A stretch of 64,000 bases of DNA from an uncultured Ruegeria sp. (GTDB taxonomy: Bacteria; Pseudomonadota; Alphaproteobacteria; Rhodobacterales; Rhodobacteraceae), in NCBI GenBank assembly GCA_963669395.1, contig OY770022.1:1329305-1393304 (forward strand). Reading direction: 5' to 3'. The notes under the pieces are model-generated. The model was given only the letters and a program-made list of their open reading frames with translations. It was not told where the DNA came from and ran no database searches. Position 1 is the stretch's first letter. Each line of letters begins with the position of its first letter. The position numbers were made by a program, and so were the translations under genes. Below, in pieces: positions 9,273 to 25,414 of the stretch.

Positions 9273-9935
9273 CTACATAGCCTCCAAGGTATGCTCGAGG
9301 CCATTTCGAATGTGATCTTCCAACAACTTCTTGGCCATATCCGCGTCTCTGGCCAATGCGGCATCGAACATGTGTTTGTGTTCTTTGGCTGCTACCTCAC
9401 CTCGATAGGTCAGTACGAGCATCTGGTAGCGAAGATACTTGTCATAGATGATTGAGTGAAGGGATAGAAGATTCTTGGAGTTGCAGGCTGCTATCATCGC
9501 TTGATGAAACTCCGAGTCGTACCTCTTCCAGGTTTCTTTCTCAGAGTCATCTCCTTTGAGAAGCCGTTGCTCCATCAAATGCAGCTTATGATGCGCGGCG
9601 ACCAGGTTCCCCTCCCAATCCGTGTCACCATTCTCGATGGATAACTCCAATGCATGGCACTCCAGCAGGACACGCAGCTCTGATATCTCGATCAGGTCTT
9701 CACGGGAGACCGGTGTAACCAGGAATCCCCGTTGCTCGGGAGCTTCGACAAATCCGTCGCTGGCGAGCCTGTTTAGCGTTTCACGAAGTGTCGAAAGGCT
9801 TGCCGAGTAGCGTTCCTTCAAGGCGTCCAGCTTCAGTTTGGAGCCGGGCTGCAGCTCTCCGAAGATGATGTCCCGCTTGATGCGCTGATAGGTGCTTGCA
9901 CCTATCGTGGACGGCTGTTTCGCCATGCGTTTCAC
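9273..9935 (-). CDS. GntR family (FCD domain) transcriptional regulator
   Basis: wHTH LSTLRETLNRL plus FCD (DSEFHQAM...EH...HI). Confidence 0.93.
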   Translation of the reverse strand: MKRMAKQPSTIGASTYQRIKRDIIFGELQPGSKLKLDALKERYSASLSTLRETLNRLASDGFVEAPEQRGFLVTPVSREDLIEISELRVLLECHALELSIENGDTDWEGNLVAAHHKLHLMEQRLLKGDDSEKETWKRYDSEFHQAMIAACNSKNLLSLHSIIYDKYLRYQMLVLTYRGEVAAKEHKHMFDAALARDADMAKKLLEDHIRNGLEHTLEAM

Positions 9936-10134: not shown

Positions 10135-11217
10135 GTGTCTAAGAACTTTCGCATTGCCATTGTCGGCATTGGTCTTGTTGGACGACGCCACGCGGACGCT
10201 ATCCGAGCGTTGCGCCATGTTGATCTCGTCGCGGTGGTCGACCCCAGCGAAGAAGGTCGTGCTTACGCCGTTGAGCACGGGGTCGCATGTTACGAGACCC
10301 TCGAGGAAATGTTTGCAAATCAGTCGCCGGACGGAGCTGTTCTGGCGACCCCGACCACGCTTCATGTTGAACAAGGTCTCACGTGTGTTCGACATGGGTG
10401 TCCCGTTCTTGTCGAAAAACCGATCGCCGTAGAAGCCACTGCTGCACTTGAGCTTGTTCAAGCAGCGGAGAAGGCCAATGTGCCACTGATGGTCGGACAT
10501 CATCGTCGACACAATCCTCTGATCCGGTCGGCTAAGGAAGCCATTGTCGGTGGGAAGATTGGCGATGTGCGCGCTGTCCATGCGAATTGCTGGTTCTATA
10601 AGCCAGACGAGTATTTTGATGCTGCGCCCTGGCGAAAGAAACCCGGTGCAGGGCCCATCTCGGTCAATCTTGTCCACGATGTTGATCTGCTGCGGTACCT
10701 GGCCGGAGAAGTCATGACCGTACAGGCTCAGTCGGCTGCATCGCAGCGGGGTTACGACAACGAAGATGTTGCCGGTGCTCTGTTGACGTTCGAAAGCGGG
10801 GCGATAGGGACCATAAGTGTGTCCGACAGCATCGTTGCTCCATGGAGCTGGGAGATGACGTCTCAGGAATATCCAATCTATCCTTCAACCACTGAGAGTA
10901 GCTACATGATAGGTGGCTCTCATGGTTCGTTGTCCGTTCCCGATGTTCGGTTGTGGAGTTACCAGAGTGAGCAAAGGGACTGGTGGACGCCAATCTCATC
11001 AACTGCGCTGAAAAAGGGTGCGTCTGACCCCCTGGTCAATCAGCTTAGGCACTTTGTTGAAGTAGCTCAGCACGAAGCAGAACCGATTGTATCTGGATGG
11101 GAAGGTTTAAAAACACTTCAAGTTATTGAAGCTATTCAGAATTCCTGCAGAACAGGTGAGACGGTCAGGATCAAAAACTTACAAAAAACGCCAATGGTAG
11201 ATATGACGGCAGTATAA
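10135..11217 (+). CDS. Gfo/Idh/MocA family oxidoreductase
   Basis: GIGLVG, LVEKP, VGHHRRH, NLVHDVD. Confidence 0.92.
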   Translation: MSKNFRIAIVGIGLVGRRHADAIRALRHVDLVAVVDPSEEGRAYAVEHGVACYETLEEMFANQSPDGAVLATPTTLHVEQGLTCVRHGCPVLVEKPIAVEATAALELVQAAEKANVPLMVGHHRRHNPLIRSAKEAIVGGKIGDVRAVHANCWFYKPDEYFDAAPWRKKPGAGPISVNLVHDVDLLRYLAGEVMTVQAQSAASQRGYDNEDVAGALLTFESGAIGTISVSDSIVAPWSWEMTSQEYPIYPSTTESSYMIGGSHGSLSVPDVRLWSYQSEQRDWWTPISSTALKKGASDPLVNQLRHFVEVAQHEAEPIVSGWEGLKTLQVIEAIQNSCRTGETVRIKNLQKTPMVDMTAV

Positions 11218-11232: not shown

Positions 11233-11317
11233 GTAAAAAATCTTGCAAAATATCCAAAATAGGTCAAAACTCTTAATCGCAAAAAAGAAGCATCATGATG
11301 TCTCAGGGAGGAGCAAA

Positions 11318-12328
11318 GTGATTACCAAACTTACCCGCCGGGCTGCTGTATCAGCCCTGGTCGCAACCGGTGTTCTGTTTAGCGCAACAAGTGGTGCGCT
11401 GGCGGAAGACAAAGTGCAACTTCGGCTCGCAACATCAGGATCGGAGACCGACCAGCGCTCGGTCGCCATGGCCGAGGTTTTCGCACCCATGGTCGCTGAT
11501 TTCGCAAGCTACGAGCCCAGCTACAATGGAACTATCTTCGCCCAAGGCACCGAGTTGGACGCCATCAGCCGGGGCAATCTGGAAATGTCGATCACCTCGG
11601 CGCAGGAACTGGCACAGTTCTTCCCCGAGTTTTCGATCTTTACCGCCGGATACGTTCATCAGGACGCGGCGCATCAGGTAGCGGTCTTCAACGATCCCCT
11701 GATGGATGCCTTCAAGCAAAAGGCCGAGGACGAATTGGGCGTCAAACTGCTGTCGGTCATGTATCTGGGCCGTCGACAGGTGAACCTGCGCCAGCCCAAG
11801 GATGAGCTGACTGTGTCTACACCTGCCGATCTGGAAGGTGTGAACCTGCGGATGCCGGGCACAGATGCGTGGCAGTTCCTTGGCAAAGCGCTGGGTGCCG
11901 CCCCGACACCAATGGCGTTCTCAGAGGTTTACACAGCTTTGTCGACCGGTGCCGTTGACGGTCAGGACAACCCGTTGCCGACCGTCGTTGACGCCAAGTT
12001 CTATGAAGTGACCAATCAAATCGTCCTGACGTCGCATCTGGTTGACCTGAACTATATCGCCATCGGCAAAGAGGTTTGGGACGGGCTGACACCGGAACAG
12101 CAGGAAAAAGTTCAGGCCGCAGCGGATGCAGCGGCTGAGTCGGGCCGCCAGAAACAGCTTCAGAAAGAAGAAGATCTGGTCAGCTTCCTCAAGGAGCAGG
12201 GCATGGAGGTCTACGAGCCCGACCTCGCGGCGTTCCGCGATCAGGTACAGTCGATGTATCTGGAAAGCGAGTTCGCCGGGTCATGGCCGGACGGTGTTCT
12301 GGAGCAGATCAACGCTCTGGGCAACTAA
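11318..12328 (+). CDS. dctP: TRAP transporter substrate-binding protein
   Basis: Signal peptide, LRMP (conserved carboxylate-binding Arg), EVYTALSTGAVDGQDNP. GTG start behind GGAGG. Confidence 0.92.
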   Translation: MITKLTRRAAVSALVATGVLFSATSGALAEDKVQLRLATSGSETDQRSVAMAEVFAPMVADFASYEPSYNGTIFAQGTELDAISRGNLEMSITSAQELAQFFPEFSIFTAGYVHQDAAHQVAVFNDPLMDAFKQKAEDELGVKLLSVMYLGRRQVNLRQPKDELTVSTPADLEGVNLRMPGTDAWQFLGKALGAAPTPMAFSEVYTALSTGAVDGQDNPLPTVVDAKFYEVTNQIVLTSHLVDLNYIAIGKEVWDGLTPEQQEKVQAAADAAAESGRQKQLQKEEDLVSFLKEQGMEVYEPDLAAFRDQVQSMYLESEFAGSWPDGVLEQINALGN

Positions 12329-12358
12329 GTTCGTCTACACAAGGGAGGGAGAACCACA

Positions 12359-12934
12359 ATGAAAGGCTTTCTAAAGGGGTTCTCCCGACTGACCGAAGCG
12401 ATTGCCGGCGGGATGCTGGCGGCAATCTTCCTGATCTTCCTTCTCCAAATTCTTCTGCGCTACTTCTTTACCCCCGCTGGCTGGACGCTTGAACTGATCG
12501 GCATCCTCTGGGTCTGGGTGATCTTTTTTAGCTGCGCCTTCATCGTGCGCGAGAGGGATCACGTGAAGTTCGACATCATCTACCTTTCGGTGCCGATGCG
12601 CGTGCGGCAGATCTTTGCGATGCTGGCGGCCGCGGCGATCGTGGTCGGGATGCTCTATAGTTTCCTGCCGACGTGGGACTACATCGACTGGATGAAAATC
12701 CGCAAAACCTCGACTGTGCGCAATCCGTTCTCCGGCGAGAAGATCCCGTTGCGCACAGTATTCTCGATTTACGCGGTATTCATGCTGGTCGTCGCAGCGC
12801 GGTACGCGTGGCTATTCTTCGACGTCATGCGCAATGGCCCACCAAAAGCCGAGCTGGAACTGGTCGTTGGGTACAACGTGGTTGACGATCATCCCCGCGT
12901 CGACGGTGAAGACGACGAGGAAGCTGACAAATGA
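12359..12934 (+). CDS. dctQ: TRAP transporter small permease
   Basis: 4 TM segments, RY...WTLEL, HVKFD. Confidence 0.9.
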   Translation: MKGFLKGFSRLTEAIAGGMLAAIFLIFLLQILLRYFFTPAGWTLELIGILWVWVIFFSCAFIVRERDHVKFDIIYLSVPMRVRQIFAMLAAAAIVVGMLYSFLPTWDYIDWMKIRKTSTVRNPFSGEKIPLRTVFSIYAVFMLVVAARYAWLFFDVMRNGPPKAELELVVGYNVVDDHPRVDGEDDEEADK

Positions 12935-14226
12935 GTTTTGAACTTCTTTCCTGCCTGCTCGCTCTCTTTGTTCTGGCAGGCATCGGGACACCTATCGGCT
13001 ATTCCATCCTTTTGGCCTCATTGGTGTATCTGGGCACAGCCGGACTGGACGTCGCACTCGCAGGCGAGAAGATCCTGCAAGGCTTCTACAAAAGCACGAT
13101 CCTGCTTGCCGTGCCTTTGTTCATCGTCGCCGCGAATATCATGAACGCTGGGTCGATCACGGACCGTCTGCTGAACTTCTGCGTCGCTGCGGTCGGGCGG
13201 TTCAAGGGCGGCCTCGGGCACGTCAACGTGGTAGCGTCTCTGATCTTTTCGGGTATGTCCGGGTCGGCTGTCGCGGATGCTGCGGGGATTGGTAAGATCA
13301 TCATTGAGATGATGACCAAGGATGGGCGCTATAGCCGAGGTTACGCAGCCGCAATCACGGCGGCGTCGGCGACGATTGGCCCGATCATTCCGCCCTCGAT
13401 CCCGATGGTTTTGTACGCGCTCGTTTCCAAGGCCTCCATCGGGTCTCTTTTCCTGGCCGGTATTTTGCCTGGCCTGATCATGGGCGTCGTTCTTATGGCG
13501 ATGAACTATTATCTGGCCGGGAAGCGGAACTTTGCATTGGAAGAACCTGTTCCGCTGCGCGAGTTGCCGGCCAAAACCGCCAACGCGTTCCCGGCGCTGC
13601 TGATGCCTGCAATCCTGCTTTACGGCATATATGGCGGCGTCACCACTCCGACCGAGGCTGCAGCCGTGGCTGCATTCTACGCCCTGCTACTGGCAGCATT
13701 GTTCTACCGCGCACTGACCTTCCGTGGACTTTATCAAGTGTTCGTCGACAGCGCGCGCTCTTCCGCAGCCGTCGGGGTGGTCATTGGGGGCGCGTTCATT
13801 CTGAACTTCATCGTTATTCAGGAGCAAATACCGCAGTCTATCTCGGCGCTGCTGGAGGGTTCTGATGTCAGCCCGATTGTGTTCCTGATCCTCGTAAACC
13901 TGCTGATCCTCGCGCTGGGATGCGTGTTAGACGCAACAACGATCATCCTGGTGATTGTGCCCCTGTTCATTCCAACCTGCGAAGCGCTTGGGATTGATCT
14001 GGTGCATTTCGGGGTGCTGGTCGTGGTGAACTCGATGATCGGTCTGATCACGCCGCCCTACGGCATTCTACTCTTTGTGATCAACGCCGTGACGGACATT
14101 CCGCTGCGCGAAATCATCTCGGAGATTTGGGCCTTCCTGGCGGTGCTCATCTTCGCCCTCGTGATCATGATGCTGATGCCTGATCTGGTCCTGTGGTTGC
14201 CGCGTATGTTTGGATATCAGGGATAA
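12931..14226 (+). CDS. dctM: TRAP transporter large permease
   Basis: SGSAVADAA, IIPPSIP, TPTEAAA, TPPYG. Confidence 0.95.
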   Translation: MSFELLSCLLALFVLAGIGTPIGYSILLASLVYLGTAGLDVALAGEKILQGFYKSTILLAVPLFIVAANIMNAGSITDRLLNFCVAAVGRFKGGLGHVNVVASLIFSGMSGSAVADAAGIGKIIIEMMTKDGRYSRGYAAAITAASATIGPIIPPSIPMVLYALVSKASIGSLFLAGILPGLIMGVVLMAMNYYLAGKRNFALEEPVPLRELPAKTANAFPALLMPAILLYGIYGGVTTPTEAAAVAAFYALLLAALFYRALTFRGLYQVFVDSARSSAAVGVVIGGAFILNFIVIQEQIPQSISALLEGSDVSPIVFLILVNLLILALGCVLDATTIILVIVPLFIPTCEALGIDLVHFGVLVVVNSMIGLITPPYGILLFVINAVTDIPLREIISEIWAFLAVLIFALVIMMLMPDLVLWLPRMFGYQG

Positions 14227-16112
14227 TGTGCCTCTCGGTTTCGACAACGTCGATCCCCGGTGATCTGGCCGAAAAACTGAGTGCTATCGCCGACGCGGGG
14301 TTCGGAGGTGTCGAATTACACGAACCGGATTTGACCGCTTTTGATGGGCCGCCATCGCAAATTCGGAACATTGTATCAGATCTCGGCCTGAAGATTTGCC
14401 TGTTACAACCCTTCCATAACCTTGAAGGCCAGGCCGACGCCGGACGGGAGCGCGTCTTTGATCGGCTGAAGCGCAAACTCGACCTGATGAGCGAGTTGGG
14501 TACTGATCTGCTGCTAATTGGGTCCGCGTTCGAGGTCGATGCCGCTGCGACCGGAGAACAGGTAATCGCAGATCTTGGCGAGGCGGCTGAGATCGCGAAA
14601 GAGATGGGATTGCGTCTGGCCTATATGGGCTTGCCTTGGTCGGATCTTATTCACTCGGATGAACAGGCGTTAGGCGTCGTTGATGCTGTCGACAGCCCTA
14701 ATCTGGGGTTGGCTTTGAATTCCTTCTTCTCGCTTGCCGACAGGTCCAAACCCGCCCGCCTTCGGGATATTCCCGGAGAGCGGCTGTTCCATGTGCAACT
14801 GTCCGATGCACCCCGGCTTGAGATGGATATCCGCAGGCTCAAGCGGCACTTCGGGCTTTTGCCCGGTCTTGGATCGCTGAACCTTGCGGGCTTCGTGCGG
14901 GTGTTGTCCCGCGCCGGATACAAGGGGCCTTGGTCCATTGCGCGCGTCAACGAAGCAGCTCCTCAACCCGGTGGCCCAACACTGGCCCGAGACAGCTACA
15001 GGTCGCTGGTGAACCTGTTAGATGAGGTTTCCCGGACCGAGCCCGGAACCGATTTCGGCATCCCGGACCTACCGGAACGCGTCTTTGCGTCCGGCTTCGA
15101 ATTCGTCGAATTTACAGCTGATGAGGTAAGCGGCGCGCAGCTGGCGGACATTCTGTCAGCAATGTGTTTTCGAATGGAGCGAAAGCATGTAAGCAAGTCC
15201 GTCGAGTTGTGGCGGCAGGGCGCGATAAACATCGTTGTGAATACCGAAAAGGAAGGTTTTGCACATTCGGCGTTCCTGGGCCACGGCCCTTCCGTTTGTG
15301 ACATGGGGTTGCGTGTCAAAGATGCGGATCAGACGGTTCAGCGAGCGACCGCGTTGGGCGCGCCGAATTTCTCACAGCCGGTAGGGACCGGGGAACTGGA
15401 CATCCCGGCCATCCGAGGTGTAGGTGGCAATGTTGTCCATTTCATAGATGAGAAATCCGATCTGCATCGGGTTTGGGACATCGAGTTCGAGCCAGTCGCC
15501 AAGACCAAAGCGATCCAGCCCGCCGGTCTGCGCCGCATCGACCATCTGGCACAGACGATGCGTAACGATGAGATGCAAAGCTGGCTGCTCTATTACATTT
15601 CGACTTTTGAGATGGCAAAATCCCCGATCGTGAACGTTGCCGACCCGTTGGGTGTTGTGCAAAGCCAAGCTATCGAAAGCCCCGAAGGCGAAGTGCGTTT
15701 AAACCTGAATGGTGCAGTTGGGCGTCGAACACTGGCGGCTTCATTCCTTGAAGACGGTTTTGGTGCCGGTGTTCAGCACATCGCCTTCCAGTCGGACGAC
15801 ATATTTGAAACCTCAGCCCAATTGCGGAAGTCCGGTTTTCCCAGCCTGTCCATCCCAGAAAACTACTACGCTGATCTGCAAGCGACATTCGGGTTAAGTG
15901 AAGACCTGATCGCCCAAATGCGCAGGGATAACATACTCTACGATCAGGCGGCGGGTGCCGAGTACTTTCAGATCTACAGTCGCCCCATTTTTAACGGCTT
16001 TTTCTTTGAAATTGTCGAGCGACGAACTGCTTACGCCGGCTATGGTGCGCGTAACGCTGCGTTTCGATTAGCGGCACAAACGCGACACCACGTGGCGGAA
16101 GGAACAACCTAA
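14226..16112 (+). CDS. QuiC1-type fusion: sugar-phosphate-isomerase TIM barrel plus HPPD-like (VOC) domain, with degenerate N-terminal site
   Basis: C-terminal RIDH/VQHIAF/FFEIVER metal triad intact; N-terminal dehydroshikimate dehydratase motifs altered. ATG at 14226 overlaps the dctM stop. Confidence 0.88.
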   Translation: MCLSVSTTSIPGDLAEKLSAIADAGFGGVELHEPDLTAFDGPPSQIRNIVSDLGLKICLLQPFHNLEGQADAGRERVFDRLKRKLDLMSELGTDLLLIGSAFEVDAAATGEQVIADLGEAAEIAKEMGLRLAYMGLPWSDLIHSDEQALGVVDAVDSPNLGLALNSFFSLADRSKPARLRDIPGERLFHVQLSDAPRLEMDIRRLKRHFGLLPGLGSLNLAGFVRVLSRAGYKGPWSIARVNEAAPQPGGPTLARDSYRSLVNLLDEVSRTEPGTDFGIPDLPERVFASGFEFVEFTADEVSGAQLADILSAMCFRMERKHVSKSVELWRQGAINIVVNTEKEGFAHSAFLGHGPSVCDMGLRVKDADQTVQRATALGAPNFSQPVGTGELDIPAIRGVGGNVVHFIDEKSDLHRVWDIEFEPVAKTKAIQPAGLRRIDHLAQTMRNDEMQSWLLYYISTFEMAKSPIVNVADPLGVVQSQAIESPEGEVRLNLNGAVGRRTLAASFLEDGFGAGVQHIAFQSDDIFETSAQLRKSGFPSLSIPENYYADLQATFGLSEDLIAQMRRDNILYDQAAGAEYFQIYSRPIFNGFFFEIVERRTAYAGYGARNAAFRLAAQTRHHVAEGTT

Positions 16113-16113
16113 T

Positions 16114-16986
16114 ATGAAGGCCGCACTAATCGGACAAGGGATTTCTGGCTCCATGACGCCTGAGATGCACGAGGCGGAGGGCCGGGCGCAGGGCATCGAT
16201 CTGAGCTACGGTAGGATCGACACTGCAAAAGAGCCATTTCGTGGAATGTCGGCCGCTGATTTACTGCATTATTCCGTTGAATTAGGCTGTGCGGCGGTCA
16301 ACGTGACACACCCCTACAAAGCGTCGGTCATTGATCATCTCGATGAGCTTTCCAAGACTGCTGAGGAGCTTCAAGCTGTCAACGCGGTGGTTTTTTGTGA
16401 CGACCGAATGGTTGGCCACAACACCGATTACATAGGTTTCCACAGTGCCTTCGGAGATTTTTTGGGATCATCGAAGACTGAAACGGTTCTCTTGTTTGGT
16501 GCTGGTGGCGCGGGCAGTGCAGTCTCTTTGGCTTTGCTTGATTCAGGTGTTCGAGATCTGGAGATCATCGATCCTGACTTCCACCGAGCGCAGGCGCTGG
16601 TCAGTCGACTAAAGGTCTTGCGCCCTTGTGCGAAGCTTCAGGGTTCCCCCTCGATTTCGTTGGAACGGGTCAAATTTGTGGACGGAGTGGTCAATGCAAC
16701 ACCGCTCGGGATGGATAAGTACCCCGGGTCGGTAATTGATCCATCATTGTTGCGGCCGGATGCTTGGGTGGCAGATATAGTATATTTCCCGCTCGAGACA
16801 CACCTTCTGAGCAGCGCCCGCACAACTGGGTTAAAAGTGATGAATGGTGCTGGAATGGCAGTTCATCAGGCTGCAGCGTCTTTTGAAATCTTCACCGGCT
16901 GCACCGCCTCAATCAGTCGTCTTCAAAACGTTTTCGATTCACTTCGTCAGCAGCGCATGCGCGAGTTTAGAGGTGCAACGGTATGA
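16114..16986 (+). CDS. Shikimate/quinate dehydrogenase family protein, probably NAD-dependent and catabolic
   Basis: SMTPEMH, NVTHPYK, AVN, GHNTD, GAGGAG; acidic DPD replaces the NADP-type NRT motif. Confidence 0.88.
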   Translation: MKAALIGQGISGSMTPEMHEAEGRAQGIDLSYGRIDTAKEPFRGMSAADLLHYSVELGCAAVNVTHPYKASVIDHLDELSKTAEELQAVNAVVFCDDRMVGHNTDYIGFHSAFGDFLGSSKTETVLLFGAGGAGSAVSLALLDSGVRDLEIIDPDFHRAQALVSRLKVLRPCAKLQGSPSISLERVKFVDGVVNATPLGMDKYPGSVIDPSLLRPDAWVADIVYFPLETHLLSSARTTGLKVMNGAGMAVHQAAASFEIFTGCTASISRLQNVFDSLRQQRMREFRGATV

Positions 16987-17798
16987 CAAACGACGAGCAA
17001 GCTATCCGCCAATGGTGGCGTACCTCCATCATCGACATGAAGCCCGGTCAGATCGCTTTTCGTGGCAACGCCATAGAGGACCTGATCGGGAACGTATCTT
17101 TCCCGCAGATGATCTGGCTGATGGTGCGGGGTGATCTGCCCAGCGGCGCACAAGCGCGCTTGTTCGAAGCTGCTTTGGTCGCAGGCGTGGATCACGGCCC
17201 ACAGGCTCCCTCAATCGCGGCTGCGCGTATGGCCGCCACCTGCGGGGTAGGTCTCAATAATGCGATGGCGACTGCGGTGAACATGCTGGGCGACGTGCAC
17301 GGCGGGGCAGGCGAGCAGTGTGCAGAGCTGTACTATGATATCGCAGTCCGTATGGATGCGGGAGCTTCGCTGAATGACGCTGTTCGGGATGGCTTGGACA
17401 GCTGGCGCGAGACGTATGGCAAGATCGTCTCGGGCTTTGGTCACAGGTTCCACAAACCCGTCGATCCACGCGCACCACGATTGATGCAACTTGTTCGAGA
17501 TGCGGCGGCAGAAGGCACAGTTTCTGGCCGGTTTGCCGATATCGGAGAAGAGGTTCAAGCCGATCTGGGTCGTCAACGCGGCGGTCGGTCAATTGCCATG
17601 AATATCGACGGCGCGACAGCTGTGATCTTCTGCGAGCTTGGCTTTCCTGCGCCCTTGTCGCGAGGGCTATTCTGCCTGTCCCGCTCGGTCGGAATACTTG
17701 CCCACGCTTGGGAGCAGATGGGTCAGGGCGGTCGAAACAAAGGGCCCATGCCCCCGAAATACTTACCCTTCTACGAAGACAGGAATGATGACACGTGA
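16983..17798 (+). CDS. Citryl-CoA lyase-like protein (short citrate synthase family)
   Basis: DHGPQAPS, HGGAGE, GFGHRFH, DPR, NIDG. Confidence 0.88.
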   Translation: MTNDEQAIRQWWRTSIIDMKPGQIAFRGNAIEDLIGNVSFPQMIWLMVRGDLPSGAQARLFEAALVAGVDHGPQAPSIAAARMAATCGVGLNNAMATAVNMLGDVHGGAGEQCAELYYDIAVRMDAGASLNDAVRDGLDSWRETYGKIVSGFGHRFHKPVDPRAPRLMQLVRDAAAEGTVSGRFADIGEEVQADLGRQRGGRSIAMNIDGATAVIFCELGFPAPLSRGLFCLSRSVGILAHAWEQMGQGGRNKGPMPPKYLPFYEDRNDDT

Positions 17799-18975
17799 GA
17801 CATCGAAACCCTTCCGGGTCGGCCTTATCGGCTGTGGTCGTATCAGCGATATCTATCTAAAAACACTGTCAAAATTTTCAAACGTCGAGGTCGTGGCTTG
17901 TGCAAGCCTTGATCCTTCGGAAAGCCGCGCCAAAGCGGATCAATACGGTGTCGCCCAGGCCTGCACGCCAGATGAAGTGTTTGACGATCAGACGATTGAC
18001 TGCGTTCTGAATCTGACAATACCGGCGGCGCATGCCGAAATCAGCCTGCGTGCGTTGGAGGCGGGCAAGCACGTCTATTCCGAGAAGCCGCTGGTTATGG
18101 ATCGAACGGATGGTAAGGCGATTCTGCACATGGCCTCTGAAAAGGGGCTACTGGTCGGTTGCGCACCCGACACGTTTCTGGGCGGTCGTTGGCAAACCGT
18201 TCGGCGCTTGATCGATGAGGGTGCCATTGGCAAACCGACAGGGGTTTTTGCCCATGTCGGTACCCACGGGACAGAACGCCACCATCCCAATCCGGATTTC
18301 TACTATAAGGCGGGTGGTGGGCCATTGCTGGACCTTGGGCCGTACTACCTGACCGCCATGATCTGCTGCCTTGGTCCCGTTGACCGGGTCGCCGGAATGG
18401 CGCGATGCACGTTCGACAAAAGGATGATCGAAAACGGCCCTCGCAACGGCGAATGGATAGATGTCGAGGTGGACACGCACTCCCTAAGCCTGCTTCAGTT
18501 CTCATCCGGAGCCATAGGGTCGATGACCATGAGCTTCGACGTCTGGGACAGCGAAACTCCGCGGTTCGAGATCTACGGTGAAAACGGCACCATCAGCATT
18601 TCTGATCCTGACCCGGTTCATGGTGCCAATATCTTTCAAGGGGATGTCTGGCTGAAAACGCGGGAGACCTCGCGCTGGTCTCATCAGCCTCGTCCAATCG
18701 GTCGCGAAAACTGGCAGGTGGTCGAAAACAAACATGGATTCAATGAAGACAGTCGCGGGCTCGGCCTTTTGGATCTGGCCCTGGCGGCACAAGAAGGACG
18801 CCAACCCCGTGCAAGTGGAACGCTCGCCTACCACGTTTTCGAGGTCATGGACGCGATCGAACGGGCACCGAAATTTGGCGCTTATCAGACGATAGAAAGC
18901 CGTTGCGCGGCTCCGGAGCCTTTGCCGGTCGATTTCCTGAACGATGAGAGGAAGGAGCTGGTCCATGCCGATTGA
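17785..18975 (+). CDS. Gfo/Idh/MocA family oxidoreductase
   Basis: GCGRIS, HVYSEKP, APDTFLG, HPNPDFYY, DLGPYY. Confidence 0.92.
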   Translation: MMTRETSKPFRVGLIGCGRISDIYLKTLSKFSNVEVVACASLDPSESRAKADQYGVAQACTPDEVFDDQTIDCVLNLTIPAAHAEISLRALEAGKHVYSEKPLVMDRTDGKAILHMASEKGLLVGCAPDTFLGGRWQTVRRLIDEGAIGKPTGVFAHVGTHGTERHHPNPDFYYKAGGGPLLDLGPYYLTAMICCLGPVDRVAGMARCTFDKRMIENGPRNGEWIDVEVDTHSLSLLQFSSGAIGSMTMSFDVWDSETPRFEIYGENGTISISDPDPVHGANIFQGDVWLKTRETSRWSHQPRPIGRENWQVVENKHGFNEDSRGLGLLDLALAAQEGRQPRASGTLAYHVFEVMDAIERAPKFGAYQTIESRCAAPEPLPVDFLNDERKELVHAD

Positions 18976-19639
18976 GACACTCGACTTTGCCCAGCCATTC
19001 TTTCGTGTCCAGCACATCACCGATGAAGACAGAATTTCTGTCGAGGGTCGCGCCATCGTTCTGAACCTCGGGGAGAGGGGCCTCTCTGTCGAGGATCAAA
19101 CCGTTGCACCGCTTTCCTCGGTGATCGTGCAAGACAGCACGCTTAGCGGCGTGGAACGTGCAGTCATTGTCCACGGTTTCGACGCCCATGCCGATGAAAA
19201 CGAGTTGTTCGCATGGGTGAAAGATACATGGCCATCTGCTTTTGATGTTCGCCAAGAGGAGCGTCTGCGCGGTGTCAGCCACTACATGTCGCCAAAGGTC
19301 TTCGTGGGTAACGTTGGACTGACCATGTACCATTCCGGTTCGGTCCCATTGAATGTCGGATTGCACAAGGATCATCCGTTCTGCCCGGTACCGGGGTTTC
19401 GCGAAGTGCATACGCAAATCGTAGGCTTAGGCAAAATGCAGCAATGCCGCGAACGGGACGTTGAAACCCTTTATCTCGAAGAATTCATGGCCCCGGGCAC
19501 GACGCACAAACCGATGTATGACGCTGAAGGCAACTACCCCTGGCATCAATACGAGACGATTACCCCCAGCATTTTTATGGCGGTTGAAATACTGCCCGAA
19601 GGCGCGTGGATTCCCGGAATGGAGGTTCAGAATGGCTGA
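18965..19639 (+). CDS. Hypothetical protein with C-terminal cupin resembling the aldos-2-ulose dehydratase/isomerase (AUDH) cupin domain
   Basis: HKDH...FREVHTQI..G.M...H.P...YPWHQY His/Glu metal-site pattern; translationally coupled on both sides. Confidence 0.65.
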   Translation: MPIETLDFAQPFFRVQHITDEDRISVEGRAIVLNLGERGLSVEDQTVAPLSSVIVQDSTLSGVERAVIVHGFDAHADENELFAWVKDTWPSAFDVRQEERLRGVSHYMSPKVFVGNVGLTMYHSGSVPLNVGLHKDHPFCPVPGFREVHTQIVGLGKMQQCRERDVETLYLEEFMAPGTTHKPMYDAEGNYPWHQYETITPSIFMAVEILPEGAWIPGMEVQNG

Positions 19640-20822
19640 GAGACTTTTACCCGAAAACCTGAATTTTGACGGTCCATTCCCTCGCCTGTCTCGCCGTTTG
19701 CGGCTAGGCGTTGTTGGCGGTGGACGTATCTCAGTCACGCAAGCAACTGCTGCGCGGATGACCGACCGGTGGGAGGTCGCCGCAGGCGCGCTCAGTTCTG
19801 ACGCTGCGCGCAGCAAGGCGCGCGGGGCTGAGTGGTTCTTGCCATCAGGCCGGTGCTATGCGTCATTCGACGAGATGGCAAAAGCCGAGGCGGCGCGCCC
19901 GGATGGCGTGGATGCCGTAATGATCACTACCCCGAACCACGTTCATTTTGAAGCGGCCAAAGCGTTTCTTGAGGCGGGCATTGACGTACTGTGCGACAAA
20001 CCCCTGACCAACGAAGTCGCCGAGGCCGAGGGGCTAGAGGAGATCACTGCGCGCACGGGGCAGGTCTTTGCGGTCGGCTATGCGATGTCGTGCTTTCCGG
20101 TGATCCGGCAGGCGAAACAGAATTTGGCCGATGGCGGTATCGGCAAGATCAACCAAATCCATGTCGAGTTCATGCAAGACTGGATGACGCCCGACGATGT
20201 GGCTGATGCGCCCCATGTCAAATGGCGGCTGGACCCAAAGATTTCTGGCCCGACCAGCTGTGTCGGCGATATCGGTACGCATGCCGCGCATCTCGCCAGC
20301 TTTGTTTCGGGCCTGCCCTTGACCGACCTACGGGCCGAGTTTCATGTCTGCGGCGCGCCAAAGCCTTTGGAAGACACGGTGTTCATGTTCACCCGCTATC
20401 GAAACGAGGTTCCGGGAACCCTGATGGCAACGCGTCTTGCCCCCGGAAATCGGGGTGGATTGCGGTTGCGGGTATTCGGCAGCGAAGGCGGCCTCGAGTG
20501 GGATTTGGAGAACTCGGAACAGCTGAAGTTCAATCGGTTCGGTGAGCCGGATCGTATCATCAGCCGAGGTCACGGGCATGGTATCGGACCCGGTGCGGAA
20601 CGACTGATCCGTACCGCGCGCGGCTTCCCCGAAGGGATTATCGAAGCCTGGGCCAACCTCTATACGGAGTTTGCAATGGCCGTGGCCGCGCGCCGGGATG
20701 GCGTTATTGTTCCGGCCGATTGGCTTACTTATCCCAGTGTCGAACAAGGTGCAGACGGTGTCCGATTCATTGACGCCTCTGTGCGCTCTCACCAGTCCGG
20801 AGGGGAATGGGTCACTCTCTAA
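19632..20822 (+). CDS. Gfo/Idh/MocA family oxidoreductase
   Basis: GVVGGG, ITTPNHVH, CDKP, KWRLDP, GDIGTHA. Confidence 0.92.
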   Translation: MAERLLPENLNFDGPFPRLSRRLRLGVVGGGRISVTQATAARMTDRWEVAAGALSSDAARSKARGAEWFLPSGRCYASFDEMAKAEAARPDGVDAVMITTPNHVHFEAAKAFLEAGIDVLCDKPLTNEVAEAEGLEEITARTGQVFAVGYAMSCFPVIRQAKQNLADGGIGKINQIHVEFMQDWMTPDDVADAPHVKWRLDPKISGPTSCVGDIGTHAAHLASFVSGLPLTDLRAEFHVCGAPKPLEDTVFMFTRYRNEVPGTLMATRLAPGNRGGLRLRVFGSEGGLEWDLENSEQLKFNRFGEPDRIISRGHGHGIGPGAERLIRTARGFPEGIIEAWANLYTEFAMAVAARRDGVIVPADWLTYPSVEQGADGVRFIDASVRSHQSGGEWVTL

Positions 20823-20926: not shown

Positions 20927-20976
20927 TGACTACGTGTGATGAATTTGAGATTCGCTGACACGTGGAGCTGTCGTTC

Positions 20977-21891
20977 ATGGTGAAACCCGAAGAGGCTGGC
21001 GCATGCCCCTCTCTCTATTCCTTGGCGCATCTGACGCTGATTGGCTGTACGCCGCCCGAGCTGGTCTATATCGCCGCGCGGGCAGGTTACGATGCCGTCA
21101 GCCCCCGGTTCATTCCGATGCATGTGCCCGGCGAATTCACCCAGTCCCCGATCGACAAGGCTCAGGTGCAGGCTACCAAAACTGCGCTTTCCACAACCGG
21201 TTTGAAAGTCCTTGATGTCGAGCTGGCGCGCATCACGGAAGATGTCGATCCGCGCAGTTTTGAGCCTTCTCTTGAGATCGGTGGGGAATTGGGCGCTAAA
21301 CGCATGATCATGAGCGCGTGGACCAATACCCGCGATGATCGTGACTTCCTGATCGACGTCTATTCTGAAACTTGCGAACTGGCCGCGCGCTACGGGCTAA
21401 CAGTGGACCTGGAGTTCCCAAGTTTTTCACGCCTGCGCACTCTGGATGAGGCATTGGATATTGTCCGTGCCTCCGATCAGCCGAATGGCGGTATTCTTGT
21501 CGATACGCTCTACTTGCACCTCAGTCGCGTTGATCTCGGAGAGCTTCTACACGTCCCCTCGGAGTTGTTTCACTTCCTGCATATCTCCGATTGCCTGCCC
21601 GGGATCGCCGATACGCGCGAGGGCATGATCCAGCTGGCGCGCGATGCGCGGCTATATCCTGGCGAAGGTTGGATCGATTTCACCGGCATCATCGAACGGA
21701 TGCCACCCGTCGACTATTCCATCGAACTGCCCAACCAAAGCCGCGTTGCCGAGTTGGGATATGAAGAACACGCGCGCCGCTGTCTCAGCCACGCCAAGCG
21801 AACATTCGGCCAGGCGCGGTCACAGCGTCGTATGCCCGATGCTGCAATTCCAAAACACCAAGAGGATCATCATGGGCAAAGAGCTCACTGA
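20977..21891 (+). CDS. Sugar phosphate isomerase/epimerase (xylose-isomerase-like TIM barrel)
   Basis: VDLEF, LVDTL, HISD, RLYPGEG, SIELP. Confidence 0.85.
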   Translation: MVKPEEAGACPSLYSLAHLTLIGCTPPELVYIAARAGYDAVSPRFIPMHVPGEFTQSPIDKAQVQATKTALSTTGLKVLDVELARITEDVDPRSFEPSLEIGGELGAKRMIMSAWTNTRDDRDFLIDVYSETCELAARYGLTVDLEFPSFSRLRTLDEALDIVRASDQPNGGILVDTLYLHLSRVDLGELLHVPSELFHFLHISDCLPGIADTREGMIQLARDARLYPGEGWIDFTGIIERMPPVDYSIELPNQSRVAELGYEEHARRCLSHAKRTFGQARSQRRMPDAAIPKHQEDHHGQRAH

Positions 21892-23281
21892 AAACGACCG
21901 CAACATGGCGGCCGATATGCTGGCACGCGCCCGCGCTGCCATGGCCGAGATCGAGGATTGGGATCAGGACAAGCTGGACCGCCTGGCTCAGGCCATTGCA
22001 TGGTACGCAGGGAACGAGAAAACCTTCACCCGTCTGGCGCAGCAAGGCGTGGACGAAAGCGGTATCGGAGATCGCGAAGGGCGTCCTGCGAAGCGATTCA
22101 AGATTCACATGGTGCTGCGAGATGTCTTGCGTACGCCCTCGACGGGGATCGTCGAAGTCGACGAAGAAAAGGGGCTCGTGAAATACGCCAAACCTGCTGG
22201 TGTCATCGCATCCCTGATCCCGATGACCAATCCAGCAATGACGCCACCGGTGACAGGTGTATCCGCCGCAAACGCACGGAATGCGGTCATCTTCAGCCCG
22301 CATCCGCGAACCGCCCATACCACCTTCGAAATGGTCGAGGTCATGCGTGCAGCTTGTAGTGCCGCAGGTGCCCCCGAGGACTTGTTTCAATCTATTCGCA
22401 AACCGTCGATTCCATTGACGCAACATCTGATGGAGATCTGCGACCTGACTCTGGCAACGGGTGGCAAGCCGATGGTCAAAGCGGCCTACAGTTCTGGGCG
22501 CCCGGCCTATGGTGTCGGCGCGGGCAATTCGTCCATCGTCATCGATGAAACCGCCGACTTGGACATTGCCGCACAGAATACACGCATTTCGAAGACGTCC
22601 GACTTTGGGTCGGGCTGCTCGGCCGACGGCAACATCATCATCCAGAGCTCAGTTTACGACGATATGGTCAAGGCGCTTCAAGCCGAGGGCGGCTACCTGT
22701 GTTCGGATGAAGAGAAGGCCATGCTCGAAGCGGCCATGTGGGATGAAAAGGGAAACCGCACGTTTCCGACCATCGCCTGTCCGCCGCAGCAAACGGCCAA
22801 GGTCGCCGGTTTTAGCATCCCCGAAGACCGCAAGTTTCTGATGGTTGAAAATCAGGGGCAAATCGGCCCGCAGCATAAGTTCTCAAAGGAAAAACTGACT
22901 ACTCTGATGGCGCTTTATCACTTCGATACATTCGATGACGCGCTGGATACGGTCAGTCAGATCTATAACACGGGCGGCAAAGGCCATTCCTGCGGCATCT
23001 ACAGCCACAATGACGATCATATCGACCGGCTGGCGCGTCTGGCTCCGGTTAGCCGCATGATGGTGCGACAACCTCAGTCCAAGGCCAATGCTGGTGCCTG
23101 GACCAATGGCATGCCTATGACCAGCAGCCTGGGCTGCGGCATCTGGGGCGGCAACATCACCAATGAAAACGTCACCATGAAACACATGATGAACTACACC
23201 TGGGTCAGCCGTCCGATCCCCGAGGATCGCCCCTCGGAGCCGGACCTGTTCGGTGAATTCTACGGACAGGAGGTCGCGTGA
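21872..23281 (+). CDS. Acylating (CoA-dependent) aldehyde dehydrogenase, SauS/AdhE-N-like
   Basis: PMTNP, ATGG..MVKAAYSSGRPAYGVGAGN, catalytic Cys (GSGCS), EKL, LGCGIWGGN. Confidence 0.88.
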   Translation: MGKELTENDRNMAADMLARARAAMAEIEDWDQDKLDRLAQAIAWYAGNEKTFTRLAQQGVDESGIGDREGRPAKRFKIHMVLRDVLRTPSTGIVEVDEEKGLVKYAKPAGVIASLIPMTNPAMTPPVTGVSAANARNAVIFSPHPRTAHTTFEMVEVMRAACSAAGAPEDLFQSIRKPSIPLTQHLMEICDLTLATGGKPMVKAAYSSGRPAYGVGAGNSSIVIDETADLDIAAQNTRISKTSDFGSGCSADGNIIIQSSVYDDMVKALQAEGGYLCSDEEKAMLEAAMWDEKGNRTFPTIACPPQQTAKVAGFSIPEDRKFLMVENQGQIGPQHKFSKEKLTTLMALYHFDTFDDALDTVSQIYNTGGKGHSCGIYSHNDDHIDRLARLAPVSRMMVRQPQSKANAGAWTNGMPMTSSLGCGIWGGNITNENVTMKHMMNYTWVSRPIPEDRPSEPDLFGEFYGQEVA

Positions 23282-25062
23282 TGGACGCAAGCAAACTGGA
23301 CGGTAAAACCGTCGCCGAACACATCGTTGATTTCCTGGAACGTCGTGAGGTCAAACATGTGTTCGGCCTGTGCGGCCACACGAACATCGCGGTTCTGGCT
23401 GCGCTGGCGGAAAGCCCCATCGATTTCGTCACCGTGCGTCACGAACAAATAGCCAGCCACGCGGCAGACGCTTATGCCCGCGTGACGGGCAAGGCCTCGG
23501 TGGTATTGTCCCATCTCTCCCCGGGACTGACCAATTGCGCCACCGGGGTCGCCAACGCCGCACTGGACTGTATCCCGATGGTGGTGATTGCGGGCGATAT
23601 TCCCACGCACTACTACGGTAAACACCCGCATCAGGAGGTGAACCTGCACGCGGACGCAGCCCAATGGGAAATATATCGACCCTTCGTAAAACGCGCCTGG
23701 CGGGTCGACCGCGCAGATTTAATGGCCGAGATTCTTGAAAAGGCGTTCCATCTGGCTGAAAGCGGCCAGCCCGGGCCGGTACTGGTCAATGTCCCCATGG
23801 ACATCTTTTCAGAGGTGATCCCCTTGGACAGTTTCGACCGCATTCGCGACAACACGCGCGCGCTCAAGAAACCGTCGATTGACGACGAGACAGCGGGAGA
23901 GATTGTCGAAGCGTTGGCTAAAGCCGAAAACCCAGTCGCTTATGTCGGAGGTGGTATTCTTCTGGCACAGGCCAGCGAGGAGTTGCGAGAATTTGTTGAA
24001 CATATGGGGTTGCCAGTCGCGCATTCCCTGATGGGTAAAGGCGCGTTGCGGGACGACCACCCGCTTGTGCTGGGAATGACCGGGTTTTGGGGCACCGAAT
24101 TGGTTAACCAGTCCTGCTTGAATGCGGACTACATCTTTGCAGTGGGAACACGGTTCAAAGAGGCCGATTGCTCCAGCTGGTACCCTGGCTATACGTTCAA
24201 CATTCCCGGTTCTAAGGTCATTCATATCGACATCGAGCCGCAGGAGATCGGTCGGAACTATCCCACTGAGATCGGAGTCGTTGCTGACGCCAAGGCCGCA
24301 TTGCGCGTCCTCAACCGGGTCGCCCGCGAGATGTATCCGGACGGCTTCAAACGCCCCACGCTGGAGAAGAAGATCGCTGGCTTCCGGACGGACTTCAAAG
24401 CGCGCAACGTGGAAATGGCGACTTCATCGGCCTTTCCAATGATGCCCGAGCGTATTCTGGCAGATACCCGCAAGGCACTGCCCGAGGATGCCATCATCAC
24501 CACGGACGTTGGGTGGAACAAGAACGGTGTCGGGCAACAGTTCGACATTTTGACGCCGGGTTCAATCCTGACCCCGGGCGGGTTCGCGACGATGGGATTC
24601 GGCCCTCCGGGCGCGATCGGCGCGAAACTGGCGGCACCTGATCGCGTTGTCCTCAGTCTGGTCGGTGATGGTGGTTTCGGTCAAAACCCGTCGATGCTTG
24701 CGACTGCGGTCGAACTTGATCTGGGCATTATCTGGCTGGTCATGAACAACAACGCCTTCGGCACCATCGCGGGCCTTCAAAAGGCACATTACGGTCTGAC
24801 CTACGGGACGACCTTCCCCGGGTCAGCCGAGGCGCCCGCAAACGGGCCGGGTTATGCAAGCATTGCAAGAGCTTATGGCGCGGAAGGGCACAGGCTCAGC
24901 GCTGCTGACGAATTGTTGCCCGCATTAAAAGCTGCAATAGCTAGCGGCAAACCAACTGTCCTAGATGTCCCAATGATTAACAACCCGACGCCAACTACCG
25001 GACATTGGAACATCCTGGACATCTATTCGCCGGACAAGGACGTTTCTCACGTCGCGACCTGA
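23278..25062 (+). CDS. Thiamine diphosphate-dependent enzyme (acetolactate synthase-like)
   Basis: RHEQ, PGPV, ThDP motif GDGGF...NN. Confidence 0.92.
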   Translation: MMDASKLDGKTVAEHIVDFLERREVKHVFGLCGHTNIAVLAALAESPIDFVTVRHEQIASHAADAYARVTGKASVVLSHLSPGLTNCATGVANAALDCIPMVVIAGDIPTHYYGKHPHQEVNLHADAAQWEIYRPFVKRAWRVDRADLMAEILEKAFHLAESGQPGPVLVNVPMDIFSEVIPLDSFDRIRDNTRALKKPSIDDETAGEIVEALAKAENPVAYVGGGILLAQASEELREFVEHMGLPVAHSLMGKGALRDDHPLVLGMTGFWGTELVNQSCLNADYIFAVGTRFKEADCSSWYPGYTFNIPGSKVIHIDIEPQEIGRNYPTEIGVVADAKAALRVLNRVAREMYPDGFKRPTLEKKIAGFRTDFKARNVEMATSSAFPMMPERILADTRKALPEDAIITTDVGWNKNGVGQQFDILTPGSILTPGGFATMGFGPPGAIGAKLAAPDRVVLSLVGDGGFGQNPSMLATAVELDLGIIWLVMNNNAFGTIAGLQKAHYGLTYGTTFPGSAEAPANGPGYASIARAYGAEGHRLSAADELLPALKAAIASGKPTVLDVPMINNPTPTTGHWNILDIYSPDKDVSHVAT

Positions 25063-25166: not shown

Positions 25167-25390
25167 TTATAGCCCTAACAGCGCTCGATCGGATTCGCGT
25201 GAGACACGCTCGTGCAGCAGCTTGAGCAATCGATCCGCTTTATCTCTCTCGATTTCCTCGAGAAGGTTCAAAACAGCCGCGCCATAGGTAATCTTTTCGC
25301 GTTTCATCGCGACGCTGTTGCTTGCTCGCCCGGGCCTGGAGGTCCCTGAGTCTCGCGCGCGCCTGCCGCGGGCTTTTTTGTGCGGAGTTC
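25167..25390 (-). pseudogene. Frameshifted MobC/MobS-like mobilisation accessory protein
   Basis: QARARLRDLQARASKQQRRDETR [frameshift] KITYGAAVL...VSRESDRALLGL*, matching the DTRRKI.GA...DRALFGL pattern; divergent from the mobA remnant. 5' end approximate. Confidence 0.65.
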
Positions 25391-25414
25391 GGGTTGGGGC
25401 CCGATGTCCTTTAC

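Follow-up and report, generated by a model that had tools for sequence, protein, structure and literature searches.

In a 64,000-nucleotide stretch of an uncultured Ruegeria sp. genome (assembly GCA_963669395.1, contig OY770022.1, positions 1,329,305 to 1,393,304 of the forward strand; hereafter the window), we examined a gene whose product joins an N-terminal xylose-isomerase-like TIM barrel (N-domain) to a C-terminal domain resembling 4-hydroxyphenylpyruvate dioxygenase (HPPD), a member of the vicinal oxygen chelate (VOC) superfamily (C-domain). This is the architecture of QuiC1 and QsuB, the two-domain 3-dehydroshikimate dehydratases. We favor, with moderate confidence, the reading that the window protein belongs to a distinct and widespread offshoot of QuiC1/QsuB in which the dehydratase barrel now serves as a scaffold, while the VOC domain is the part under selection and works within a quinate/shikimate-like operon. 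The VOC domain is most likely the catalytic part of the protein.

The QuiC1 active site is formed by R64, L97, E134, L136, D165, H168, Q191, S206, R210 and E239 (PMC7442255, citing Peek et al. 2017). A HMMER alignment placed residues 3-620 of the window protein on QuiC1 of Pseudomonas putida (5HMQ; E 1.7e-143), the residue numbering of the site coinciding by chance in the two proteins. At the ten positions the window protein carries H64, L97, M134, L136, N165, F168, Q191, K206, G210 and A239, so that seven of the ten are replaced and only L97, L136 and Q191 are kept. The metal ligands E134, D165 and E239 have become M134, N165 and A239, with the fourth ligand Q191 remaining; the general base His168 is F168, and the substrate-binding R64, S206 and R210 are H64, K206 and G210. 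An initial annotation, made from the sequence alone, had called the loss of a metal-binding Glu/Asp/Glu set and a catalytic His/Arg pair from an intact open reading frame (ORF), and had listed five altered motifs (AYMGLPW, LNSFF, KRHFG, SIARVN and QPFHN); the alignment to P. putida QuiC1 bears out this loss, and each of the five motifs is present in it. Against the NCBIfam equivalog model for QuiC (NF042435, EC 4.2.1.118) the window protein scored 528.9 bits, with a cut-off of 1200. By sequence, every catalytic membership test for dehydroshikimate dehydratase that we ran would therefore place the window protein outside that group, and only the two-domain architecture would place it inside.

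The fold, by comparison, is that of QuiC1. Pfam searches found a xylose-isomerase-like TIM barrel at residues 19-256 (PF01261, 108.9 bits against a cut-off of 31.1) and an HPPD-type VOC domain at residues 289-555, with three VOC-family models each at or above its own cut-off (PF14696, 126 bits; PF13669, 27.5 bits; PF00903, 24.6 bits). The C-terminal half also aligned with HPPD of Pseudomonas fluorescens (1CJX; E 1.8e-45). An AlphaFold2 (AF2) model of the window protein (mean predicted local confidence, pLDDT, of 79.8) superposed on 5HMQ over its full length with a template-modelling (TM) score of 0.86 and 38-39% identity in the structural alignment, and a fold search with this model returned matches among HPPD and hydroxymandelate synthase (HMS) structures. 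The N barrel thus appears, by predicted fold and by descent, to be a PF01261 member that has given up the usual Glu/Asp/His(Gln)/Glu metal site of the family.

The loss of the site is not peculiar to one genome. At least 120 homologous clusters with 61-94% identity to the window protein came out of a search among 5.8 billion proteins; where they were named at all, these belonged to Rhodobacteraceae/Paracoccaceae. Among 119 full-length homologs in this identity range, position 134 was L, I or M, and the replacements N165 (118 sequences), F168 (107), G210 (108) and A239 (98) recurred beside the retained Q191 (119). H189, D194, P137 and W138 were invariant in this set, and the RHF part of the substrate loop was kept. 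We refer to QuiC/QsuB proteins that keep the dehydratase site as canonical; their signature, taken from representatives at 50% identity, reads R64, D65, L97, E134, L136, D165, H168, F/L189, Q191, D194, S206, R210 and E239. A scan of one genome per species then gave 80 loci, with Ruegeria spp. at 93-96% identity, which places the source of the window in Ruegeria, and further loci in Aliiroseovarius, Cognatishimia, Roseibium/Labrenzia, Hoeflea, Shimia, Tropicimonas and others. In a collection of plasmids every homolog fell under 60% identity, and several were flanked by qui genes (type II dehydroquinase and shikimate dehydrogenase).

In a tree of 163 sequences, drawn with a midpoint root, the window protein lay inside a purely non-canonical clade (n = 67 sequences) whose members come from marine Rhodobacteraceae, Roseibium and Hoeflea. 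A wider group of 70 was sister (support 98) to 23 alphaproteobacterial QuiCs, nearly all of them canonical, and the clade branched beside and among canonical QuiCs. Independently of this clade, a few other lineages have also lost the dehydratase site. The tree fits a single main loss of the site without proving it alone. Taken with the homolog set, the sequences indicate that the dehydratase-dead fusion is a clade-wide state, as opposed to a single decaying gene or an event in one genome. Sources name its members 'sugar phosphate isomerase/epimerase and 4-hydroxyphenylpyruvate domain-containing protein', 'TIM barrel protein', 'HPPD' or '3-dehydroshikimate dehydratase'; the last of these, and the name 4-hydroxyphenylpyruvate dioxygenase, are likely wrong. 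Our literature search found no paper that describes the clade or its operon.

We then asked which domain selection protects. Among canonical proteins the N-domain was more conserved than the C-domain in every pair (100% of pairs; n = 3160 pairs), whereas in the clade the C-domain was more conserved than the N-domain (99% of pairs; n = 2346 pairs). The flip holds at matched divergence: in the band of 60-70% overall identity, canonical proteins gave 0.705 for the N-domain and 0.590 for the C-domain, and clade proteins 0.562 and 0.711. Seventeen N-domain residues that are invariant in canonical proteins were lost in the clade, against one C-domain position. Conversely, 22 C-domain residues are clade-specific, being at least 90% conserved in the clade and variable in canonical proteins; they include R316, E318, R319, D359, H405, H414, D418, R436, Q443, E487, E489, N493, E528 and S530. 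Among Ruegeria orthologs the ratio of nonsynonymous to synonymous rates (dN/dS, or omega; Nei-Gojobori) was 0.10 in the N-domain and 0.045 in the C-domain. Purifying selection therefore acts on both domains, with about twice the strength on the C-domain, and this rules out neutral drift of both, one of the outcomes that the initial annotation had named as refuting its proposal. Its proposal that selection here acts on the orphan VOC domain holds in so far as this domain is under the stronger constraint (0.045 against 0.10, and 99% of pairs), but the N-domain, at 0.10, is not free of selection.

In some Ruegeria pairs dS itself contrasts sharply between the domains, as between the window and locus L010 (0.19 in the N-domain, 0.74 in the C-domain). 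When positions 14226-16986 of the window were compared with loci L005-L013 and L017, only some of the close relatives had the shikimate-dehydrogenase-like gene downstream of the fusion gene. The unequal dS and this patchy gene together suggest a recombination breakpoint within the fusion gene or just past it.

The metal triad of the C-domain follows the same division. H440, H518 and E595 of the window protein align with H161, H240 and E322 of 1CJX, confirming the His/His/Glu triad (in RIDH, VQHIAF and FFEIVER) that had been read from the sequence, and the triad is present also in QuiC1 and most canonical relatives. It is invariant in the clade (69 of 69 members) and in the close homologs (119 of 119), but is damaged in 12 of 59 canonical representatives at 50% identity, with the patterns HQE, HGE, GHE, HYS, SRE and EHG. 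The triad thus appears to be dispensable for dehydratase function and indispensable in the clade. The damaged, dehydratase-intact representatives (P0147, P0167, P0182, P0198, P0202, P0204, P0231, P0232, P0235, P0238, P0249 and P0253) look, by sequence, like the mirror image of the clade.

The C-domain shares further features with HPPD, namely Q517, which precedes the second triad His, and N610 in the C-terminal helix. Yet the window protein scored 205.6 bits with the HPPD equivalog model (TIGR01263, EC 1.13.11.27), below its cut-off of 277. The conserved Gln of HPPD (Q225 in 1CJX) and the Phe of its C-terminal GNF motif are substrate contacts in HPPD. In the clade the former position is L or F (residue 503) and the latter, position 611, is Ala; in two of six genomic HPPDs the Phe of the GNF motif aligns at 611.

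Decay of the barrel has gone further in some lineages. In L075, L084, P0124, L105 and L107 there are gaps at former active-site positions of the N barrel. In the first three, which were aligned in detail, several gaps delete N-barrel loops, affecting QPF(R/H)D, G(L/A)PW and the loop that bears S206 and R210. These three nonetheless retain 20-22 of the 22 C-domain hallmarks together with the triad; L075 retains the full operon, and L084 the part of it that was recovered. Judged from these alignments and from the triad-damaged canonical proteins, the two domains appear to decay reciprocally in different lineages, which implies that each has, or had, a function of its own. The natural experiment on the VOC domain is thus stronger than was first claimed for the single gene: an entire clade takes part in it, with a conserved operon of its own and with lineages in which the active-site loops of the N barrel are deleted. 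In the clade the former active-site positions hold a new conserved set (N165, F168, H189, Q191, K206, G210 and A239). This set, together with an omega of about 0.10, makes the N-domain a retained scaffold or a remodelled site and not a product of neutral decay.

We sought the context of the clade gene by searching the 80 loci with the window's operon proteins (tblastn). The ATG of the fusion gene overlaps the dctM stop (TAATG, 14224-14228) and its own stop ends 1 nt ahead of the next ATG, so the gene is tightly coupled to its neighbors. The conserved core consists of a GntR regulator, the oxidoreductase MocA1, the tripartite ATP-independent periplasmic (TRAP) transporter DctPQM, the fusion gene, a citryl-CoA-lyase-like gene, an optional module, a stand-alone TIM barrel (TIM2), an acylating aldehyde dehydrogenase (ALDH) and a thiamine diphosphate (ThDP) enzyme (Table 1). 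About 55 loci contain this core, with fusion proteins as low as 48% in identity, and every locus that has it carries the non-canonical fusion signature. The citryl-CoA-lyase-like gene normally follows the fusion gene directly; in the window a shikimate-dehydrogenase-like gene stands between them, and this gene is absent in Ruegeria relatives whose fusion protein is 93-94% identical. Within the optional module, the 231-residue protein between two MocA genes (18944-19639) matched nothing in Pfam or NCBIfam. A 150-residue ORF (25322-25774) shortly past the end of the operon matched MobA/MobL and TraA relaxases in their N-terminal part only.

Table 1. Features of the fusion gene and its operon in the window (positions count from the first letter of the window)
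Feature	Position	Strand	Basis and remarks
GntR/FCD regulator, divergent from the operon	9273..9935	-	Syntenic in 55/80 loci
Gfo/Idh/MocA oxidoreductase (MocA1), core gene	10135..11217	+	Homolog also in the canonical qui cluster
TRAP transporter DctP/DctQ/DctM	11243..14226	+	DctP at 11243-12328
QuiC1-like fusion gene	14226..16112	+	628 aa; ORF intact; full-length alignment to 5HMQ; AF2 model
N-terminal xylose-isomerase-like TIM barrel, dehydratase site lost	14226..15035	+	aa 1-270; PF01261, 108.9 bits
C-terminal HPPD-like VOC domain	15087..16085	+	aa 288-620; PF14696, PF00903, PF13669
Triad codons His440, His518, Glu595	15543-15545, 15777-15779, 16008-16010	+	Aligned to 1CJX
Shikimate/quinate dehydrogenase-like gene, accessory	16114..16986	+	Family searches; synteny
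Citryl-CoA-lyase-like short citrate-synthase-fold protein	16983..17798	+	NF004864, 433.6 bits against a cut-off of 261; syntenic in 58 loci
Optional module: MocA2, 231-aa protein, MocA3	17800..20822	+	Present in about 39/58 syntenic loci
Stand-alone xylose-isomerase-like TIM barrel (TIM2)	20962..21891	+	Intact Glu/Asp/His/His/Glu metal site; RxxRxxPGxG motif
Acylating (CoA-dependent) aldehyde dehydrogenase, SauS/EutE type	21872..23281	+	
ThDP enzyme, acetolactate-synthase/IolD/cyclohexanedione-hydrolase superfamily	23278..25062	+	

The operon carries an intact barrel beside the dead one. In TIM2, E151, D181, H186, D210, R227, R230 and E255 were invariant among 55 orthologs and H207 was His in 54 of 55; its RxxRxxPGxG motif resembles that of QuiC1. 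TIM2 aligned weakly to IolI (1I60) and to the QuiC1 N-domain, had no match to a curated family, and was not detected by the IolE model. To avoid circularity we also searched 150 other genomes of the family starting from TIM2. Wherever the TIM2 ortholog was at least 78% identical, the genome had a non-canonical fusion within 1-7 kb (8 of 8), and a fusion protein accompanied TIM2 in all genomes that this search returned (10 of 10). The two genomes with a TIM2 of about 50% identity had fusions in which most of the canonical site is kept (L106 with all five signature residues, L108 with D165N). The initial annotation had not connected the fusion gene with this intact stand-alone barrel, which always accompanies the clade gene.

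A locus of Tropicimonas isoalkanivorans (L077, 2054-11896) holds a QuiC-like gene with E134, D165, H168, R210 and E239 and yet with H189 and L136R, adjoining homologs of TIM2 (49%), the ALDH (66%) and the ThDP enzyme (72%). This locus, like L106, is possibly an evolutionary intermediate. An HMG-CoA-lyase-family gene occupies the usual place of the citryl-CoA-lyase-like gene in the L077 cluster, and such an exchange of non-orthologous genes suggests a step in which a beta-hydroxyacyl-CoA undergoes retro-Claisen cleavage.

Regulator, MocA oxidoreductase, TRAP transporter and fusion protein are common to this operon and a TRAP-dependent quinate/shikimate operon; the clade operon lacks the type II dehydroquinase and a working dehydratase, and TIM2, the ThDP enzyme, the acylating ALDH and the citryl-CoA-lyase-like enzyme are present instead. 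In loci with about 50% identity and the canonical signature, MocA and a type II dehydroquinase share one strand, and the opposite strand carries GntR, DctPQM, shikimate dehydrogenase and QuiC. In its mature form, DctP of the clade operon is 79-81% identical to that of these canonical quinate/shikimate clusters, and the two transporters therefore probably carry the same acid or very similar ones. The closest solved structure to DctP is 4PF6 (RD1_0742 of R. denitrificans; 74% identity), whose ligand is probably KDO, followed by sialic-acid-binding SiaP proteins. KDO is a 3-deoxy-ulosonic acid, of which quinate is a carbocyclic analogue, and this hints that DctP binds an acid of quinate-like or 3-deoxy-ulosonate-like type. 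As a substrate of the operon we rank KDO below quinate/shikimate, because a near-identical transporter serves a cluster of AroQ, shikimate dehydrogenase and canonical QuiC. DctP homologs are very abundant (7454 proteins with E of at most 1e-60 among the candidates scored), and some sources label them 'SiaP sialic acid-binding' or 'Neu5Ac-binding', names that are probably wrong given their quinate/shikimate-type contexts.

Two further assignments were considered for the operon's enzymes. MocA1 as a LigC-like semialdehyde dehydrogenase of aromatic meta-cleavage received a low rank, since the canonical cluster has a homolog of MocA1 as well, and the ThDP enzyme is not IolD (237 bits against a cut-off of 715). 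A true IolE (402 bits) and IolD (907 bits) lie side by side elsewhere in the genome (G000:C1:450064-452744), and the window operon is therefore not the myo-inositol pathway; the iol analogy of the ThDP enzyme and TIM2 appears to hold only at the superfamily level.

The genomes that carry the cluster bear on the role of protocatechuate. PcaH was present in 7 and absent in 4 of 11 such genomes (partly drafts), and one of the four also had no match to the LigB family (Cognatishimia activa is a carrier that lacks PcaH); the cluster thus apparently does not depend on classical protocatechuate cleavage. No canonical QuiC was found in the six genomes with a clade gene that were checked (6 of 6). The window genome itself has a protocatechuate 3,4-dioxygenase and a separate true HPPD. 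Its assembly is a single 3.8-Mb contig with 82% marker-gene completeness, so plasmids or a chromid may be missing and absences from this genome are to be read with that caveat.

How might such a protein work? Under the reading we favor, the metal site and catalytic residues of the N barrel were replaced by a conserved, mostly hydrophobic or neutral set while the folded barrel was kept, and this barrel would probably serve oligomer assembly by analogy with QuiC1/QsuB dimers, which are built by contacts between N- and C-domains. In QsuB, dimers are predicted to form through contacts of this kind, and oligomers are no longer formed once the C-domain is lost (PMC7442255). The metal of the VOC domain, Fe(II) or another divalent ion, would chelate two neighboring oxygens of an intermediate derived from quinate, dehydroquinate or dehydroshikimate (an alpha-hydroxyketone, an enediol, or an alpha-hydroxy or keto acid), and the domain would then carry out an O2-dependent C-C cleavage or an isomerization. 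The product would enter a sequence of ThDP enzyme, acyl-CoA formation and retro-Claisen cleavage ending in acetyl-CoA and an oxo-acid, bypassing protocatechuate. We infer this substrate class and chemistry; what the data show is that the dehydratase site is lost, that the loss marks a clade, that constraint has flipped between the domains, and that the synteny and the partner barrel are conserved.

Two routes can be drawn through the core enzymes. In the first (scheme A), TIM2 would dehydrate dehydroquinate at C4/C5, using the chemistry of dehydroshikimate dehydratase, to a 3,4-dione; the ThDP enzyme would open the ring by hydrolysis, as IolD or cyclohexanedione hydrolase does; the acylating ALDH would turn the resulting aldehyde into a CoA ester, and the lyase would free acetyl-CoA and 2-oxoglutarate. 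Alternatively (scheme B), the VOC domain would cleave an alpha-hydroxyketone or enediol with O2, oxidation would give 4-carboxy-4-hydroxy-2-oxoadipate, the ThDP enzyme would decarboxylate it, the ALDH would form citryl-CoA, and the lyase would yield acetyl-CoA and oxaloacetate. Scheme B requires one dehydrogenase beyond those in the core. A bolder version, which we put forward only tentatively, makes the HPPD-like domain a new metal-dependent and probably O2-dependent C-C-cleaving enzyme on a non-aromatic, quinate-derived intermediate (3-dehydroquinate, 3-dehydroshikimate, or an enediol or dione form). The ring-opened tricarboxylate would then pass through citryl- or homocitryl-CoA to acetyl-CoA and oxaloacetate or 2-oxoglutarate by way of the ThDP enzyme, the ALDH and the lyase, in a protocatechuate-independent route. 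By extension, the orphan domain of canonical QuiC1/QsuB would be a second, hitherto overlooked catalytic activity of these proteins.

Several observations weigh against a scaffold barrel with a catalytic VOC domain. The HPPD-like domain of QuiC1/QsuB has had no function assigned since the 2017 structure, and QsuB, in the one published trial (with protocatechuate), showed no activity of its HPPD-like domain, for which a purely structural role was proposed (PMC7442255, the only paper on the function of the QuiC1 C-domain that our literature search found). No activity of this domain has biochemical support anywhere in the QuiC1/QsuB family, and the conserved triad may also bind a purely structural metal. 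Scheme A is complete with the other five core enzymes and leaves the fusion protein no obligatory step. Conservation across genera is also lower for the window protein (about 62-73%) than for TIM2, the ALDH and the ThDP enzyme (84-93%), and the substrate of the TRAP system is proposed from homology only. Finally, the N-domain is still under purifying selection, and the new polar invariants N165 and H189, beside Q191 and D194, may form a site.

This last point leads to the strongest alternative, that the N barrel has changed its job. N165, H189, Q191, D194 and K206/R207/H208 would form a metal-independent or differently ligated site, for example that of an isomerase or tautomerase acting on a dehydroquinate-like ligand, and both domains would be catalytic. 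In the close family the former active-site positions exceed the mean conservation of the N-domain; H189 and N165, nearly invariant and specific to the clade, are kept even in the loop-deleted lineages; the RHF of the substrate loop is retained, and the omega of the N-domain is far under neutral. Most of the replacements, however, are hydrophobic or small (L/I/M134, F168, G210 and A239) and resemble the filling-in of a site, several lineages have lost the pocket-forming loops while keeping the operon, the N-domain has about twice the evolutionary rate of the C-domain, and the confidence of the AF2 model is lowest in the former active-site loops (195-216 and 241-246). We regard a second catalytic site in the barrel as possible but doubtful.

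Less probable still, and in our estimate unlikely, is that the whole protein is a non-catalytic pseudoenzyme, a scaffold or a substrate-binding or channeling subunit (for instance, for the citryl-CoA-lyase-like protein), with the triad holding a structural metal. The fusion gene always adjoins its neighbors and is often translationally coupled to them, the operon's core catalytic enzymes surpass the protein in conservation, and the QsuB result (PMC7442255) agrees with such a role. It sits poorly with a triad present in 69 of 69 members when an unneeded triad decays in canonical relatives (12 of 59), with 22 more polar or charged C-domain invariants, several of them beside the triad (R436, R437, Q443, A514, Q517 and E528), and with an omega of 0.045, typical of an enzyme core.

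That the protein is still a 3-dehydroshikimate dehydratase, working through alternative residues and rightly so named in public records, is very improbable. The overall QuiC1 fold and architecture, the shikimate-dehydrogenase-like gene next downstream in the window and the protocatechuate 3,4-dioxygenase in the genome would all suit it, but the new residues at three of four metal-ligand positions, at the general-base position and at three substrate-binding positions cannot do the original jobs, and the loop-deleted members are unable to form the site. The equivalog score is 529 bits against the cut-off of 1200, the dehydrogenase gene is merely accessory, and PcaH is absent in 4 of 11 cluster-carrying genomes. 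An incipient pseudogene, with both domains drifting neutrally, has nothing in its favor except the lost catalytic residues and is refuted by an intact ORF in 78 loci, the omegas of 0.10 and 0.045, the same substitutions across genera and the conserved synteny.

The clade therefore separates the two domains of QuiC1 genetically, with the dehydratase half switched off, and partly deleted in some lineages, and the HPPD-like half under stronger constraint than in any canonical relative. The function of the QuiC1 C-domain becomes directly testable in culturable strains, carriers being Ruegeria lacuscaerulensis, R. arenilitoris, R. halocynthiae DSM 27839, Cognatishimia activa CECT 5113, Roseibium album CECT 5095 and Shimia abyssi DSM 100673. 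The conserved operon is probably a new route by which marine Rhodobacteraceae degrade quinate-type cyclitol carboxylates of plants or algae.

Set beside known systems, the window protein is closest in plan to QuiC1 of P. putida (5HMQ) and QsuB of Corynebacterium glutamicum, which have the same TIM barrel, linker and HPPD-like VOC domain over their full length and the triad in both cases. It differs from them in the replacement of seven of the ten site residues, an inverted domain conservation and 22 extra C-domain invariants, and its operon differs in lacking a dehydroquinase and in encoding, besides a second TIM barrel, a ThDP enzyme, an acylating ALDH and a CoA-ester lyase. Among canonical proteins its closest relatives, sharing about 50% identity, are alphaproteobacterial QuiCs in TRAP-linked clusters (e.g., the Roseibium locus L063), with homologous GntR, MocA and TRAP genes and the near-identical mature DctP (79-81%); these QuiCs keep R64, E134, D165, H168, S206, R210 and E239, and lie beside a type II dehydroquinase and a shikimate dehydrogenase, with no TIM2, ALDH, ThDP enzyme or lyase within the 10-kb flanks. 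HPPD (1CJX) shares the fold of the C-domain, the aligned triad, Q517 and N610, whereas the window protein falls below the HPPD equivalog cut-off and has L/F for the conserved Gln and Ala for the Phe of the GNF motif. Lastly, single-domain TIM barrels of the IolI/IolE and AsbF types share a Glu/Asp/His/Glu metal site with TIM2 of the operon; TIM2, however, stands outside the curated families and the true IolE is encoded elsewhere in the genome, and the fusion's own barrel, unlike all of these, has no metal site.

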